From assembly GCA_043821365.1 (NCBI GenBank), contig JBDRCX010000003.1:32001-96000 (forward strand): a stretch of DNA of 64,000 nt, read 5' to 3'. Under the pieces are notes generated by a model, which was not told the DNA's origin, made no database searches, and saw nothing but the letters and a program-made list of their open reading frames with translations. The DNA comes from Candidatus Micrarchaeota archaeon (GTDB lineage: Archaea > Micrarchaeota > Micrarchaeia > Anstonellales > Bilamarchaeaceae). Positions 17,223-46,036 of the stretch are shown here, in pieces (positions within the stretch are counted from its first letter, which is position 1; each line of letters starts with the position of its first letter). The position numbers and the translations under genes were made by a program.

Positions 17223-17245
17223 TGAAACTTTTAGTAAAAGTTTCA
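17223..17245. repeat. Perfect 10-bp palindrome with 3-nt loop (REP-like family; may act as terminator)
   Basis: TGAAACTTTT-AGT-AAAAGTTTCA, overlapping the stop codon of the FNR-like gene. Confidence 0.7.
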
Positions 17246-25991: not shown

Positions 25992-26012
25992 TGTGAAACC
26001 GTAGGTTTCACA
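25992..26012. terminator. Triloop palindrome downstream of tRNA-Lys (terminator or REP-like)
   Basis: TGTGAAACC-GTA-GGTTTCACA, 12 nt past the tRNA 3' end. Confidence 0.55.
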
Positions 26013-26024
26013 AACAAACAAAAA

Positions 26025-26150
26025 CGGGCCCAGAGGGATTTGAACCCTCGACCTGCGGATTCCACCTTTTACCAAAAAGTGGAGCCAAAAGTGGCTCTCC
26101 ATTTGATAAAATTAAAAGTCCGACGCTCTACCAAGCTGAGCTCTGGGCCC
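26025..26150 (-). tRNA. tRNA-Lys(UUU) with a 52-nt intron at 37/38 (26112-26061)
   Basis: GGGCCCA/TGGGCCC acceptor stem, G73, D arm GCTC/GAGC, anticodon loop CT-TTT-A|A, T arm GAGGG-TTCAAAT-CCCTC; the intron forms a 7-bp outer helix TTTTATC/GGTAAAA of a relaxed BHB; no encoded CCA. Confidence 0.93.
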
Positions 26151-26198: not shown

Positions 26199-26222
26199 GT
26201 CAACGCTTTTAAAAGCATTGAC
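26199..26222. promoter_or_regulatory. 24-bp near-perfect palindrome containing a TATA-like TTTTAAAA
   Basis: GTCAACGCTTTT|AAAAGCATTGAC with one mismatch, between the tRNA promoter and the candidate ncRNA. Confidence 0.5.
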
Positions 26223-26239
26223 GCCTATTTACATAACTT

Positions 26240-26530
26240 CGGGTTTGATTTGAACTGTAGTAGTCTAAATCATCTCGATTCGCCGGGTTGGCAGATCGGT
26301 TATGCATCCGCCTGCAACCGCTTTTATGAGGTTTTGTCTTTAGACAGAATCAATGATAAGCTGAAAGCGGAATAGAGGGGTTCAATGTACCTTTTTAGGA
26401 AAACGTTCTTGAACGAAACATCGTTCAAGATGCGTATGGAACGTCTTGACGTTCCATGACGAGGTACACCCAAAAACTGGGTTGCTATGTCGAATAAGAA
26501 GGTAGCGAACAATTCCTCTACCCGGCTCTC
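26240..26530 (+). ncRNA. Candidate multibranched structured ncRNA, family not recognised
   Basis: Mutually compatible nested helices, GC-richer than flanks, TATA about 26 nt upstream, T-run downstream, no credible ORF; strand inferred from TATA and T-run. Confidence 0.45.
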
Positions 26531-41744: not shown

Positions 41745-42790
41745 TCCCCCATTTGCTCTTGCAAGTCTTTAGTCATTTTTGAATATAAAAATTTGAACAT
41801 GTCCTTTGGATCCTGTTTGAATGATTCTGCTTTTACAACTGCATCCTCAACTATTTTTACTGCCCAATCACCAACTTCTTTTTCATGTTGTTCATTCCAC
41901 AATCCTTTTTTGTTCATGTAAAGTTTTAGTCTTTTGATTGGGTCTCTGTCTCTCCAATATGCTAGGTCAGTTTCTGGCCTATACTTTTTTGGATCATCTG
42001 CTGTTGTGTGCGCTCCCATTCTGTACGTTATTGCTTCAATTAAAATCGGACCTTTTCCGTTTTTTGCATTTTCAATTGATTCTTTCACTGTTTTGTAAAC
42101 AGAAACAACATCATTACCATCTATTTGGATTCCTTTGAAACCATAAGCAAGTGCTTTTTGGGCAATAGTTTCTGATTTAGTTTGCCATTTTCTTGGAACT
42201 GATATTGCCCATTGATTATTTGATATTAGAAAAACACAAGGTGCATTTAGTACGCCTGCAAAGTTTAATGCATCGTGGAAATCCCCTTCACTTGTTGATC
42301 CGTCTCCACCGCATACAACTACTGCTGCTTTTTCACCTTTCATTTTTAGTGCATGCGCAGCACCAACTGCGTGAGTGTACTGTGTTCCTATTGGTATGGC
42401 ATGCGGAAATGATTTTACATTTTTATCTAATTTTAAACCATCTTCAATTCCCATCCAACCAATGTTTATTGTTTCCAACGGTACTCCTCGTATGTAATAG
42501 CCAAAACTTTCTCTATAAGTTGGAAAAAACCAATCATCCTTTTCCATTGCAAGTGTAATTCCAACTGAAATTGCTTCCTGGCCTTCAAGTGGAGGGTAAG
42601 TGTACATTCTTCCGGTTCTTTGCAATGCTATACATTTTTTATCCCATATTCTAGCAAGATACATTAATCGATACATTTTGTCTAATAATTCGTTTGATAG
42701 TTTAGGATCAAGACTTTCATCACTATTACCTTCTTTATCTATAATTTGTAAGTAGTCGACACTACCTTCAAATACTTTTTGAATAGACAT
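41732..42790 (-). CDS. pdhA: Pyruvate/2-oxoacid dehydrogenase E1 alpha
   Basis: GQEA, PTYRE, TPP motif GDGSTSEGD...NN, and YRMGAHTTADDP. Confidence 0.94.
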   Translation of the reverse strand: MSIQKVFEGSVDYLQIIDKEGNSDESLDPKLSNELLDKMYRLMYLARIWDKKCIALQRTGRMYTYPPLEGQEAISVGITLAMEKDDWFFPTYRESFGYYIRGVPLETINIGWMGIEDGLKLDKNVKSFPHAIPIGTQYTHAVGAAHALKMKGEKAAVVVCGGDGSTSEGDFHDALNFAGVLNAPCVFLISNNQWAISVPRKWQTKSETIAQKALAYGFKGIQIDGNDVVSVYKTVKESIENAKNGKGPILIEAITYRMGAHTTADDPKKYRPETDLAYWRDRDPIKRLKLYMNKKGLWNEQHEKEVGDWAVKIVEDAVVKAESFKQDPKDMFKFLYSKMTKDLQEQMGECFQ

Positions 42791-42862
42791 AGTAAACTAA
42801 CAGAAGTAAATTTAATAAAGGAATTTTTATGTGGCTTGTTTGGTTTTTATAAATAAAAAATG

Positions 42863-43277
42863 GGACAATTGAATTTTGTTCAATGGTCCAACATTTTATC
42901 AGAATAAAATGGGGTCACTGAGAATTTCACTCGCATCGCTCGTGAAAAAATCGCCGAGCGATCGGCGAAGATTTGAATTTCTGAAGCTTTTTTTACTTGG
43001 TTTTTGCCAAGCTTTTTCCAAAAAAGCTTGCTCAGATCACCGCCTTTTCCGCCCACCTTTTGGTAAAAGGTGGATCAAAACTTGTTGTTGATTTTCGCTG
43101 CGCGAAAATAAGCGTACTCAAAACCGCGTAGCGGTTTTCAACCGTAAGTTTTTGATCCAAACTTTTTTCCAAAAAGTTTGGCCCGAAGGCGATAGTCTAC
43201 CAGGTTAGCCCATGACCCCATGAACGTAAGTGAATGGGGCATTCAAGAAATAACAGTTTCTTGTACATGACCCCATG
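42863..43277. repeat. Mosaic of more than 10 palindromes (REP/BIME- or MITE-like) between pdhA and a surface-protein gene
   Basis: Examples: CAAGCTTTTT-CCA-AAAAAGCTTG, CCACCTTTT-GGT-AAAAGGTGG, ATTTTCGC-TGC-GCGAAAAT, AAAACCGC-GTA-GCGGTTTT, CCAAACTTTTT-TCC-AAAAAGTTTGG; bounded by ATGGGGTCA / TGACCCCAT. Confidence 0.85.
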
Positions 43278-43336
43278 CAATATGTTAGGAGGTTAGTTAT
43301 GCTAACTTATTTAAACTTAGGCAACATTCTAATTTT

Positions 43337-46036
43337 ATGAAATTTACATATCTTGCTTTGGTATTGTTATTGTTGTCAACTGCCTATGCTGTTAATGTTT
43401 CGTTATGTCAGAAAATAGACACTCCTGGTGAATATGTTGTTAATGAGTCACTCTCAGGTGTATCTCCATATGTGCCACCACCATTTGATGTGGATGTTTG
43501 TATATGGATTAATGTATCTAATGTTGATTTCGATTGCAATGGTTCTACTATGACTGGTCCGGATGATTATATTGCAGTTGTTATTTATAGTCAATCGGAA
43601 CAACTATCTAATGTTACAATTAGAAATTGTGATATTTCTGATTATGATTATGCATCTCATTCATATAATTCAACTGTCACTTATATCAATAATAATGTGA
43701 GTAGTGTTATTTCGGGTGGATTCTATTCAGAATATTCCAACTCAACATATATTGATAATCGTGTTAATGACGCAGTAGGGTATGGTTTTTACTCTGACAC
43801 CTCTGAGGTTACTTACTTAGATAATAGTGTTAACGATACTGGGATAACCGGTTTTTATCTTCTAGCTTCAAATTCAACATTTACTGGAAACAATGCGAGT
43901 TACTGTGGAAATCATGGATTCTATACCTATGGTTATACCTCAACATTTTTCAACAACACTGCAAAAAATAATGCTGAATACGGTTTCTATCTTCAAAATT
44001 CAACTACTACTGCCATAAATAATACTGCGCATGATAATGACAATTCTGGTTTTAGGTCTGAAGATTCTATTTCACTCTTTAGCTATAATGACGCATATTC
44101 TAATGATATAGGTTTTATTACTGTATATTCTAATTCTACTTTCATAAACAACACTGCTTTTAACAATATTAATGGTTTTGATTCTCGTTATTCTAATTCT
44201 ACTTTCATAAACAACACTGCTTTTAACAATTCTAATTTTGGGTTTAATCCGTCTGGTTTCTATTCTATAGGATCAAATGATTCGTTTACGAATAACTTTG
44301 CTTATGATAACTCTGGCTATGGTTTCAGATTAGTTGACTCCAATTCTATATATTTACTAACAGACAATTTCGCTAATGGTTCTGAATATGGTTTCGTAAT
44401 AACAAATTCAAATGCAACATTTACAAATAATAATGCCAATAATAATGATTATGGTTTCTTTATCTCTACTTCCTCGAATGCAACATTAACAGATTGTGTT
44501 GCATATGCCAATAACATTAATGGAATGCGGATTTACAATCCATTTTACACAACTATAACCAATTCTTGGTTCTATTACAACAATCTATCATTCGGTGCAA
44601 CTACATCTGGAGCAACTTGGCCACTTGAAATAATCAATAGTAAGTTTGGTTATTCCAGTGTGAATATTTCCATAAATGACGATTTTAATTCTTCATATTA
44701 TATAAACGAAACTACTTCACCAGGATCTCCACCTACGGGATATTCATCATTTAGAAATAAATACATCGCATTGTATGACTTGGATCTTGGCAATTCTGTA
44801 CTAGATCTTCTTCAATTCCATTGGTCAGATTCAGAAACAAATGGTTATAATGAATCTTCAATGACTTTATTTGCATGGAATGGCACCAGTTGGATTCTTG
44901 TTCCTGATCAATCACTTGATACTGCTTCAAACACACTTAATGTGACTAATTTCACTTCCATCAATGATCCAAATGTTCTTGGTCTATTTGCTAATACAAC
45001 ATCATCTGGTGGAAACAACAATGGTGGCCAATCAGATCCAGAACTTTCTATTGAATTTGAAACTGATTGTTTCAATCATACAATAATTGTAACAAGCGGT
45101 AATGATCCAGTAGAAAATGCTAAAGTTGTAGTCAATGGAGATACAATAGGTTATACGGATGAAAACGGTGAAATAGAATTTGAAGGATGCACTGATTCAG
45201 TAATAATCCGTGCAACTAAAAGCGGTTATGATTCAGCATTATATAAGGAAGATTTAGACTGTGATTGCAGCCAAGGAGGCCAAGAACCTGAATGCACTAC
45301 TGACCAGAACTGTGCATATAATCAAGAGTGTACAGACAATGTCTGTGAAGACATTGATTGTTCCTGCGGAACAATCCAAGATCATGAATGTGTTTCCTAT
45401 GAATGCTGTTCAGATTCAGAATGTTCTACAGGCTATTCATGTGTGTCAAATAACTGTGAACAAACTCCAGAAGATGAATGTTCAACTGATGCAGACTGTG
45501 CTGAAACACAATACTGCTCAAACGGAAGCTGTCTTGATGTAACAGGAACATGTGGTTATGTTGCAAACCATGCATTCGTAGCATATGAATGCGGAACTGA
45601 TGCAAACTGCCCAACCTGTCCAAATGGTCTTTGCATCAACAATGAATGTGTTGCAAATGATCTTACTTGTGAAGATGGTTTAGTTGGAAGCACAGCAAAT
45701 TGTGCAGCAACAGAAGATAATGCTCCTTGTGCAAACTGTGAATATGAAGTAACAACTCCAGATGGTCAAACTCTAACAGGAACAACAGATGAAAATGGTA
45801 ACTTTAATCTACCATTAAACCTTGTTGGTACCTACACAGTTTCACTCATTAAAGGTGGAGTTGAAGTATCTTCAACTGAAGTAACCTCAAGTCAAACTAC
45901 AGTTGTTGACGATGATAATCCACCAGTTGTTGGTTCTGATCCAATGCAGTTTATTTTCTTAGCAGTGATTTTGTTGCTAATAGCTGCAATAGTGATATAC
46001 TGGTATAGTACAAGGGGAAAGAGTAAGTACAAGTAA
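43337..46036 (+). CDS. Large surface protein: right-handed beta-helix (PbH1/NosD-like) repeats, Cys-rich repeats, C-terminal TM
   Basis: Signal peptide; repeated GFY-x3-S-x-S-T-F-x-NN-x-A; CxxDxxC repeats; C-terminal hydrophobic helix plus basic tail. Confidence 0.85.
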   Translation: MKFTYLALVLLLLSTAYAVNVSLCQKIDTPGEYVVNESLSGVSPYVPPPFDVDVCIWINVSNVDFDCNGSTMTGPDDYIAVVIYSQSEQLSNVTIRNCDISDYDYASHSYNSTVTYINNNVSSVISGGFYSEYSNSTYIDNRVNDAVGYGFYSDTSEVTYLDNSVNDTGITGFYLLASNSTFTGNNASYCGNHGFYTYGYTSTFFNNTAKNNAEYGFYLQNSTTTAINNTAHDNDNSGFRSEDSISLFSYNDAYSNDIGFITVYSNSTFINNTAFNNINGFDSRYSNSTFINNTAFNNSNFGFNPSGFYSIGSNDSFTNNFAYDNSGYGFRLVDSNSIYLLTDNFANGSEYGFVITNSNATFTNNNANNNDYGFFISTSSNATLTDCVAYANNINGMRIYNPFYTTITNSWFYYNNLSFGATTSGATWPLEIINSKFGYSSVNISINDDFNSSYYINETTSPGSPPTGYSSFRNKYIALYDLDLGNSVLDLLQFHWSDSETNGYNESSMTLFAWNGTSWILVPDQSLDTASNTLNVTNFTSINDPNVLGLFANTTSSGGNNNGGQSDPELSIEFETDCFNHTIIVTSGNDPVENAKVVVNGDTIGYTDENGEIEFEGCTDSVIIRATKSGYDSALYKEDLDCDCSQGGQEPECTTDQNCAYNQECTDNVCEDIDCSCGTIQDHECVSYECCSDSECSTGYSCVSNNCEQTPEDECSTDADCAETQYCSNGSCLDVTGTCGYVANHAFVAYECGTDANCPTCPNGLCINNECVANDLTCEDGLVGSTANCAATEDNAPCANCEYEVTTPDGQTLTGTTDENGNFNLPLNLVGTYTVSLIKGGVEVSSTEVTSSQTTVVDDDNPPVVGSDPMQFIFLAVILLLIAAIVIYWYSTRGKSKYK
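44126..44230 (+). repeat. Perfect 42-bp intragenic duplication with a 63-bp period
   Basis: TATTCTAATTCTACTTTCATAAACAACACTGCTTTTAACAAT at 44126-44167 and 44189-44230. Confidence 0.85.

Follow-up and report, generated by a model that had tools for sequence, protein, structure and literature searches.

A 22-nt match between tRNA-Lys and tRNA-Pro introns of a Micrarchaeota archaeon, and the probable hairpin cassette family behind it

Introduction

A tRNA gene whose intron ends in a sequence that recurs elsewhere in the same DNA raises the question of where the intron came from. The gene is tRNA-Lys(UUU) in a 64,000-nt stretch (the window) of the genome of a Candidatus Micrarchaeota archaeon, and the 22 nt at the 3' end of its intron, read from 26082 to 26061 on the minus strand, match 43053-43074 on the plus strand at 21 of 22 positions. 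A first-pass annotation of the window had reported this match correctly, had placed the second copy in an intergenic mosaic, and had proposed that a hairpin resembling the repetitive extragenic palindromic (REP) elements invaded or seeded the tRNA intron. No further hit turns up in the window when up to 3 mismatches are allowed, and none appeared in 100 dinucleotide shuffles, so the 21/22 agreement is not a chance result. The second copy turns out to be intronic as well. Both 22-mers adjoin the 3' splice site of introns at the canonical position, and we consider it quite probable that both are terminal hairpin cassettes of bulge-helix-bulge (BHB) introns at 37/38, one in tRNA-Lys and one in tRNA-Pro, which belong to a lineage-restricted family of copied cassettes. 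A cassette, as the term is used here, has a variable distal stem of 4-6 nt, a T-run, a loop of 2-4 nt and an A-run; many copies have CCAAAAC behind them or GTTTTGG in front.

The genome under study (G000) comprises 1.198 Mb in 6 contigs, with 36% GC and an estimated completeness of 87%. Coordinates of the C1 to C6 kind are on contigs of G000, and other G numbers are genomes of relatives. Its tRNA gene map was made partly by eye, and the fractions of cassettes in tRNA genes are approximate. The intron limits given for tRNA-Lys and tRNA-Pro(CGG) are those of in silico splicing of the DNA sequence.

The second copy and the tRNA-Pro(CGG) gene

The second 22-mer lies in a gap of 550 nt that separates a minus-strand gene, ending at 42790, from a plus-strand gene that starts at 43337. 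On its minus strand the gap has a good tRNA 5' half first (43219-43182) and CTCAG-TGACCCC-A last. Removing three introns gives a 73-nt cloverleaf, which ARAGORN draws as tRNA-Pro(cgg). Exon 1 is found at 84-92% identity in most genomes of the genus, and five relatives (G015, G048, G041, G009 and G024) have the same exons with the T-arm uninterrupted; in those five, one intron follows the 5' half and is followed in turn by A-GGCGG-TGAT-CTGAG-TTCAAAT-CTCAG-TGACCCCA. The parts of the gene in G000 are as follows.

42910-43219, minus: tRNA-Pro(CGG) gene with three introns (37/38, 53/54, 59/60), from in silico splicing and the exons of relatives
43219-43182, 43045-43031, 42977-42971 and 42922-42910, minus: exons of tRNA-Pro(CGG), from the spliced product
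43046-43181, minus, 136 nt: intron 1, at 37/38, made of a 5' cassette and tail, two inner hairpins, a GTTTTG tail, a 3' cassette and GCGGAAA
43157-43181: 5' cassette of intron 1, CCAAAC-T5-GG-A6-GTTTGG, from similarity and sequence
43053-43073: 3' cassette of intron 1, in tRNA sense CCACC-TTTT-ACC-AAAA-GGTGG, which is the second 22-mer (43053-43074, plus)
42978-43030, minus, 53 nt: intron 2, at 53/54, made of a cassette, a GCAAAAAC tail and a third arm
42923-42970, minus, 48 nt: intron 3, at 59/60, with a perfect 4-bp central helix and 3-nt bulges

All three introns can be drawn with a BHB. In intron 1 the central helix is T-A, T.G, C-G, G-C (4 of 4 pairs, one of them G.U), and the outer helix on the intron side, h', pairs at 8 of 10 positions, joining the 5' arm of the first cassette with the 3' arm of the 22-mer cassette. 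Intron 2 fits the strict hBHBh' motif, with a perfect 4-bp central helix and 3-nt bulges, and repeats in mirror image the three-arm layout of the tRNA-Lys intron described below. The exon helix of intron 3 is the T-stem, which forms after intron 2 is removed.

Three other assignments for this DNA were set aside. Exon 1 had been considered as tRNA-Arg(UCG), but the relatives' 3' half, GGCGG-TGAT-CTGAG, fits Pro(CGG). A second GGCGA site (in the 42950s) was rejected as the 3' strand of the anticodon stem, being inside intron 3. The closing pair GGGGTCA/TGACCCC had prompted a look for signal recognition particle RNA or RNase P RNA at 42700-43500, for which Rfam at E <= 10 gave noise only, so that the mosaic is no known non-coding RNA.

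Hence the partner is not in an intergenic mosaic: the copy sits in the first of three introns, at 37/38, of a minus-strand tRNA-Pro(CGG) gene, and since the donor-like copy that had been cited is intronic, it carries no information on invasion from intergenic DNA. Compared sense to sense, the two 22-mers agree at 17 of 22 positions, against 21 of 22 sense to antisense, owing to inversion of the loop (Lys GGU, Pro ACC). As one of the 50 identical-stem pairs of the cassette family described below, the 21/22 match shows family membership and no private link between the two loci.

Genes of this kind are hard on standard tools. ARAGORN at default settings called 0 tRNAs within the 64-kb window, and with the -i option it gave the tRNA-Lys gene the label 'tRNA-Stop(tta)' and added one spurious tRNA within a tnpB fragment. 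Genome-wide, Rfam recovered 18 tRNAs, and the delimited tRNA genes number 43, of which about 35 are interrupted (partly by eye). Standard finders miss cassette-bearing tRNA genes, and such DPANN gene sets therefore look falsely incomplete; hairpin mosaics in DPANN genomes are worth checking for hidden tRNA exons.

The tRNA-Lys intron and its orthologues

The tRNA-Lys gene was recovered by Rfam, and its in silico spliced product of 74 nt is called tRNA-Lys(ttt) by ARAGORN. Its parts are as follows.

26025-26150, minus: tRNA-Lys(UUU) gene (RF00005, 53.8 bits, with a 53-nt insertion after model position 37)
26150-26113 and 26060-26025, minus: exon 1 and exon 2, from the spliced product
26112-26061, minus, 52 nt: intron at the canonical 37/38 site, from the Rfam insertion and in silico splicing
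26102-26111, minus: 5' segment of the intron, TTTTATCAAA, the 5' strand of h' in the minimum free energy (MFE) fold and its pair table
26082-26097, minus: small hairpin GAGCCA-CTTT-TGGCTC, from the sequence
26062-26082, minus: terminal hairpin cassette CCACT-TTTT-GGT-AAAA-GGTGG, 9 bp including one G.U

The small hairpin holds a GTTTTGG-type tail of the sort found before the 3' cassettes of longer introns. The outer helix h' has 10 bp, formed by TTTTATCAAA (26111-26102) with TTTGGTAAAA (26076-26067), and it spans the cassette loop. The cassette contributes its A-run to h' and its GGTG (26066-26063) to the central BHB helix, in each case as the 3' strand; in the 37/38 register this central helix reads C-G, U.U, U.G, U.G and is flanked by bulges UA/A and GA/A. 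With one Watson-Crick pair, two G.U pairs and one mismatch in the central helix next to the 10-bp h', this is a relaxed BHB. The pair table therefore agrees with the first-pass annotation on the point that the element's own bases supply the BHB strands, both in the outer helix and in a central helix of C-G, U.U and two U-G pairs, and the intron limits (26061-26112) and the small hairpin (26097-26082) are likewise as it gave them.

Homologous introns of 50-61 nt with the terminal hairpin occupy the 37/38 site of tRNA-Lys in 15 species of the genus, in both UUU and CUU isoacceptors, and both Lys isoacceptors of G000 carry one. A blastn-short search with the exons found tRNA-Lys(UUU) intronless in G004 and with a 14-nt mini-intron in G008. 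Its occurrence in 15 species and in both isoacceptors of G000 argues that the intron is old and not a recent invasion. The possibility that the hairpin is missing in orthologues had been raised beforehand; with this ancient intron the hairpin is retained throughout the 15 species.

Among these orthologues the arms of the distal stem change jointly (CCACC/GGTGG, CTCGC/GCGAG, CCGCC/GGCGG and CCTACC/GGTAGG, with GCGC also complementary). A second covariation joins the loop to the 5' segment of the intron, in the combinations GGT-ATC, ACT-AGT, CCT-AGG, CCC-GGG and CC-GG. The cross-loop h' fold is the MFE structure for 13 of the 15 orthologues, and in most of them it beats the hairpin-enforced fold by 3-8 kcal/mol. 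The predicted helix adjoining the Lys BHB is thus supported by compensatory change in the aligned sequences. The palindrome is conserved too, though its own 5' distal arm is unpaired in the h' fold. Judged by eye, 9 of the 15 orthologous cassettes are perfect, 4 have one G.U, 1 has a double A.C and 1 a G.A. In G000, 33 of 34 intronic cassettes have no internal mismatch, the exception being the G.U of the Lys cassette; a comparison of G.U with A.C as indicators of maintenance at the RNA or the DNA level has too few imperfect hairpins to work with (one in G000).

The surroundings of the tRNA-Lys gene hold further hairpins. There is a palindrome, GTCAATGC-TTTTAAAA-GCGTTGAC, 50-70 nt upstream of the gene (window 26199-26222), and a hairpin, TGTGAAACC-tac-GGTTTCACA, directly past its T-rich 3' end (window 25992-26012). 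About 130 nt away and divergent, at window 26282-26527 on the plus strand, lies a tRNA-Cys(GCA) 5' half (GCCGGGT..CTGCAAC, by eye), and 3' of this half come hairpins of a TTGAACG type and a GGAACG type and a T-run/A-run hairpin.

Copying and turnover among introns

Perfect hairpins in G000 are far more numerous than in a Markov control. Cassettes with perfect stems of at least 9 bp number 55, and 50 pairs among them have identical stems, against 1.45 expected for random 5-mers; the commonest distal stems are GCGC, GAAAC, CAAAC, CCGCC and CCACC. Most hairpin clusters are tRNA genes with one to three long introns, as judged by T-arm/acceptor closure and by reading of the exons.

The tRNA-Pro(CGG) gene illustrates how these introns are related to one another, since each of its modules has a close copy in another tRNA gene of G000. 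For the 5' cassette of intron 1, the copy is the first cassette of a D-loop intron (97% identity over 34 nt, C6:58360-58393). The 22-mer recurs at 94% identity in the cassette that comes first in the tRNA-Leu(CAA) intron, and the intron 2 cassette recurs at 96% identity at C6:753789. Intron 3, extended by seven T-loop bases on its 5' side and five exon bases on its 3' side, agrees at 56 of 62 aligned positions with the same stretch of tRNA-Gly(UCC) of G000 (within C2:13885-14010). The Lys-type 3' module (GCCAGTTTTGGCTCCACCTTTTnnnAAAAGGTGGA) ends the introns of Phe(GAA), Arg(CCU), Thr(GGU), Asn and other tRNAs in relatives, at 87-91% over 31-47 nt, and is also found reversed inside a T-loop intron. 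Similarity among tRNAs of different isoacceptor identity is at the level of modules, not of whole introns. The Pro isoacceptors have intron positions and boundary sequences in common.

Introns also come and go among species. Across seven species compared, tRNA-Pro(CGG) has one to three introns of differing content. The 53/54 intron is present in G000 and in none of the six relatives; the 59/60 intron is present in G000 and G019 and absent from G015, G024, G041, G048 and G009; and a D-loop intron is found in G024 only. These comparisons show that cassettes and whole introns have been gained, lost and swapped, both from species to species and among unrelated tRNA genes within a genome.

One account of the match dispenses with copying. 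Unrelated introns would evolve U-run/A-run hairpins because the endonuclease or the folding favors them, and the 21/22 agreement would be structural convergence in AT-rich DNA. The variable stems, with only the T- and A-runs and the shape constant, speak for this, and so does the visible compensation in both structures. It is very hard to reconcile with the rest, namely the 26-47 nt blocks at 87-91% between introns of different tRNAs, the 56 of 62 positions shared by the Pro and Gly T-loop introns and their flanks, the 50 identical-stem pairs where 1.45 are expected, and the absence of the family from other sampled genera of the order despite their close EndA homologues, and we regard it as highly improbable.

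A second account keeps the copying and starts it within introns. Cassettes would have arisen as closing helices of BHBs and would move by recombination or gene conversion, or by reverse splicing and reverse transcription, and the copies found elsewhere would be spill-over. The strong concentration of copies in tRNA genes fits, as do the shared intron ends at the same positions of different genes (37/38, 53/54, 59/60, and the D-loop after GCTCAGT), the likeness of the Pro isoacceptors in intron positions and boundaries, and a precedent in the Thermoproteales, as far as it is related in PMC4090602. Copying at the RNA level does not, however, predict the reversed cassettes inside introns, and the intergenic copies have no adjacent tRNA remnants, so that we hold this origin to be rather unlikely.

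Distribution of the cassettes within and beyond tRNA genes

About two thirds of the well-formed cassettes of G000 lie inside tRNA genes, and the family is thus not predominantly extragenic in the way that REP elements are. At a lower threshold of 7 bp, 37 of 90 hairpins fall in the delimited tRNA spans, which make up 0.57% of the DNA. Some 17 tailed cassettes lie outside delimited RNA genes, and those inspected are between protein genes or beside tRNA ends; examples are at window 17223-17245 and at C6:209946, 720443, 549091 and 707613. Three loci beyond the tRNA introns are described here.

Window 17223-17245: non-genic cassette TGAAAC-TTTT-AGT-AAAA-GTTTCA, tail TCAAAAC, directly next to the stop codon of a protein gene on the minus strand
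C4:16853-16915: cassette with a ATCAAAAAC tail inside the gene for 23S rRNA, in an extra segment of about 43 nt compared with the Rfam large subunit model
C6:717440-717581: inverted cassette pair with two inner hairpins in the trailer of tRNA-Pro(GGG), directly before the next start codon

The cassette at window 17223-17245 is found at the same site in G024 (C1) and G015 (C41), with other hairpin modules nested in its loop or arm, and in G024 the arm is duplicated as well. This arrangement suggests that hairpin tips may act as insertion points. At two non-genic sites a cassette stands at the same place in two or three species, and the stem changes are compensated.

The two sides of the 23S insertion carry a 13-nt imperfect direct repeat (GGGGCCCATGAAA / GGGTCCATGATAA); tRNA sites show no such duplication. 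The same 23S gene has a weak group I intron match at C4:17781-17921 (RF00028, 29.3 bits where the gathering score is 50, E = 1.5e-4). The trailer element lies outside the mature tRNA and is not an intron. It and the long introns start with a cassette followed by CCAAAAC and end with GTTTTGG followed by a cassette, giving terminal inverted repeats like those of miniature inverted-repeat transposable elements (MITEs).

In a wider sample, the pattern CCRCC-TTTT-NNN-AAAA-GGYGG occurs in 27 of 39 genomes of the genus and in 5 of 5 from two sister genera of the same family. The order was sampled in another 45 genera (131 genomes), none of which has the pattern, and a reversed-pattern control gave no hit.

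Whether a transposase accompanies the cassettes bears on the REP-like element that the first-pass annotation had proposed. REP and REPIN elements are associated with REP-associated tyrosine transposases (RAYTs). The sole Y1 transposase gene of G000 (PF01797, IS200/IS605-type, 106.6 bits) is at C3:96659-97006, within C3:96623-97072 and past the end of the window. Its flanks have hairpins of their own, GCGCCGC..GCGGCG and CTGCGGGCT..AGCCCGCAG, plus hairpins of the TTGAACG type, and not the cassette. The only clear TnpB match, at C6:553800-553997, is a fragment in a 137-aa frame, about 200 nt upstream of a two-intron tRNA-Val(CAC). A search of G000 limited to Y1 and TnpB thus found no autonomous partner for the cassette. 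With no REP-type transposase linked to the family, and GC-rich hairpins of its own around the single Y1 gene, the REP-like designation found no support, and the idea of a REP/RAYT pair was dropped, there being no RAYT-like gene flanked by cassettes. A link to the omega-RNA circles of IS200/IS605 elements was considered as well, and nothing relevant was found in the published account.

These data bear on a third account, in which the cassette is an autonomous DNA repeat, REP- or MITE-like, at home in any non-coding DNA, whose insertions in tRNA and rRNA genes survive when they make a spliceable BHB and so seed introns. In its support are the tailed copies outside delimited RNA genes, the rRNA copy whose insertion has an imperfect direct repeat at its flanks, the occurrence of cassettes in both orientations, the modules nested in a cassette at an orthologous intergenic site, and the G000-only 53/54 intron, which is just a cassette, a tail and a third arm. 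The cassettes are moreover Watson-Crick palindromes with almost no G.U, as expected of a constraint at the DNA level. Set against this, the copy first cited is intronic, no transposase is linked (the Y1 hairpins differ and TnpB is only a fragment), no target-site duplication is visible at tRNA sites, the intergenic copies that were checked share sites in two or three species and are hence old and not recently mobile, and two thirds of the copies in about 0.6% of the DNA would need strong targeting or a strong filter. On balance we find this account doubtful, though somewhat less so than an origin within introns. What stands of the original proposal is that a dispersed palindrome and the tRNA introns share building blocks, which holds for the cassette family and does not extend to an invasion from intergenic DNA.

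A more speculative version, which we offer tentatively and think unlikely as it stands, is that the cassette is a self-propagating DNA hairpin, kept perfect by a process at the DNA level and able to make BHB introns de novo in structured RNA genes; with equal reserve, hairpin-templated correction or the recognition of extruded hairpins may be named as candidates for that process. If this were true, the cassette would be a natural intron-generating element, the source of most tRNA introns and of an rRNA mini-intron in the family.

Splicing and the proposed mechanism

The splicing endonuclease of G000 is a 393-aa EndA at C6:408.6-409.8 kb with an N-terminal and a catalytic domain (PF02778, PF01974). 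It aligns over its full length with PDB ID: 4fz2, the epsilon2 EndA of ARMAN-2 (E = 3.6e-132). A second open reading frame with an EndA domain, of 171 aa, is at C6:480.6 kb. Other genera of the order have close homologues of the 393-aa protein, yet they have no cassette family. The ARMAN-2 epsilon2 EndA has broad specificity by experiment and cleaves strict and relaxed BHB motifs in vitro (PMC3239211, PMC3488258).

The copied cassette family that we prefer as the explanation would then work as follows. Cassettes, single or as inverted pairs around further small hairpins, make up most tRNA introns of the genus. In the pre-tRNA, one cassette arm pairs with a third arm that is complementary to it and lies at the opposite intron end, and the two form a long h' abutting the BHB, as the covariation shows. 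In tRNA-Lys, the distal GGUG of the cassette would form the weak central helix with anticodon-loop bases 32-35. An EndA of the epsilon2 type would presumably excise the intron, given that the ARMAN-2 homologue cuts relaxed motifs. The 21/22 identity would come from copying or common descent of cassettes among introns, and neither from chance nor from capture of an intergenic element.

Several points weigh against this explanation. Splicing of the Lys and Pro introns is a prediction from sequence alone, and the Lys central helix contains a single Watson-Crick pair. T-runs of 5-7 occur on the sense strand inside the tRNA genes (T5 at 26073-26077, T6 in Pro introns 2 and 3), and T5-T7 runs in introns should act as archaeal termination signals. 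The 5' distal arm of the cassette is unpaired in the BHB yet complementary, so the RNA model leaves the perfect palindrome unexplained. For the 135-nt intron of tRNA-Thr(CGU), C2:12177-12385, no acceptable BHB register was found by hand. Finally, the two-thirds share of cassettes in tRNA genes is approximate, as the tRNA map is partly by eye.

Comparison with known systems

Two parts of the picture are already known, the interrupted tRNA genes of Micrarchaeota with an epsilon2 EndA and the introns shared among unrelated tRNA genes of Thermoproteales. For the first, the reference is ARMAN-2 (Candidatus Micrarchaeum acidiphilum), in which disrupted tRNA genes and the epsilon2 EndA have been described (Fujishima et al. 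2011, PMC3239211; Hirata et al. 2012, PMC3488258, PDB 4fz2). G000 resembles it in phylum, in the full-length EndA match and in having many tRNA genes interrupted at non-canonical sites. The resemblance extends to details: the pre-tRNA-Pro(GGG) of ARMAN-2 carries a pair of T-loop introns at 53/54 and 59/60, as tRNA-Pro(CGG) does here, and the near-absent D-stem of its tRNA-Pro(CGG) has a counterpart in the weak D-stem here (PMC3239211). The two differ in that the introns here reach about 180 nt, are modular, and derive from a palindromic cassette also found outside tRNA genes, whereas PMC3239211 does not use the word 'repeat', and neither it nor PMC3488258 describes shared repeat content among introns. 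The interrupted share also looks higher here, at about 35/43 (partly by eye) against 56% in ARMAN-2.

For the Thermoproteales, the account as carried in PMC4090602 tells of intron sequences common to unrelated tRNA genes (2010, Mol Biol Evol 27:2233), of gains recent relative to speciation, and of copying thought to be at the DNA level, with no vehicle visible in what that source relates. Similar introns in different isoacceptors and presence or absence at the same site among relatives, the features given there, are both found here. The phylum and the endonuclease type are different. The shared unit is different too, being a small palindromic cassette or a pair of them in place of the whole intron of that account, and it is found also in intergenic DNA and in 23S rRNA and stays a perfect palindrome despite drift of the stem. 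The copied BHB introns of G000 thus have a visible modular vehicle, a cassette plus tail that occurs at intron ends, within introns, in 23S and between protein genes.

REP/REPIN elements (for REP, PMC3733652) and MITEs are like the cassettes in being short dispersed palindromes in non-coding DNA, sometimes in inverted pairs, with stem complementarity kept. Most cassettes here, in contrast, are inside RNA genes and presumably spliced out, the host is an archaeon, and the family has neither a conserved head sequence nor a repeat-flanked RAYT-like gene. The Asgard census found heavily interrupted tRNA genes with lineage-specific intron gain at sites that permit a BHB, and identified no general route by which introns arrive, neither gene-to-gene copying nor an association with mobile elements (bioRxiv 10.64898/2026.10.13.758758). 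Heavy interruption and lineage-specific gains are common to both cases; here, unlike there, the introns plainly share sequence with each other and with non-genic DNA.

A literature search of incomplete coverage found no description of palindromic cassettes building DPANN tRNA introns. New in the present work are the identification of the supposed mosaic as tRNA-Pro(CGG) with three introns, the covariation of the Lys loop with the 5' segment of its intron, the intron copy shared by Pro and Gly, and the order-wide distribution of the family. The gain of archaeal tRNA introns is an open question, and the family gives a concrete lead on how they spread. Its restriction to three genera, together with dozens of genomes in which different sites are filled, makes gain, loss and the direction of transfer testable by comparing genomes.

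Minor observations

Two further palindrome classes were seen in G000. One, GTAAAAATGC-loop-GCATTTTTAC, has about 12 near-identical stems (e.g., C6:209441, 480944, 563836 and 786413), and the other is (C/A)TTGAACG-loop-CGTTCAA(G/T) (e.g., C6:720416). Both are frequent in the DNA upstream of protein genes and could represent promoter or operator palindromes; they also occur in long tRNA introns, two of which have CCCTATAAAAACGA..TCGTTTTTATGGG.

A cassette with its tail lies in a GC-richer, structured-looking non-coding stretch at C3:124250-124520, which had no Rfam match at E <= 0.01 and may be an unrecognised non-coding RNA with an insert. The 5' end of tRNA-Leu(CAA) (ACTTCGCTACTCCTGCATGA, plus strand) is duplicated about 90 nt away, at C6:474990-475100, and the 3' end of tRNA-Asn (CCCCGGGGCG) is repeated past a hairpin-rich spacer of 55 nt, at C6:684840-684925. 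These end repeats may be acceptor-stem introns or partial duplications.

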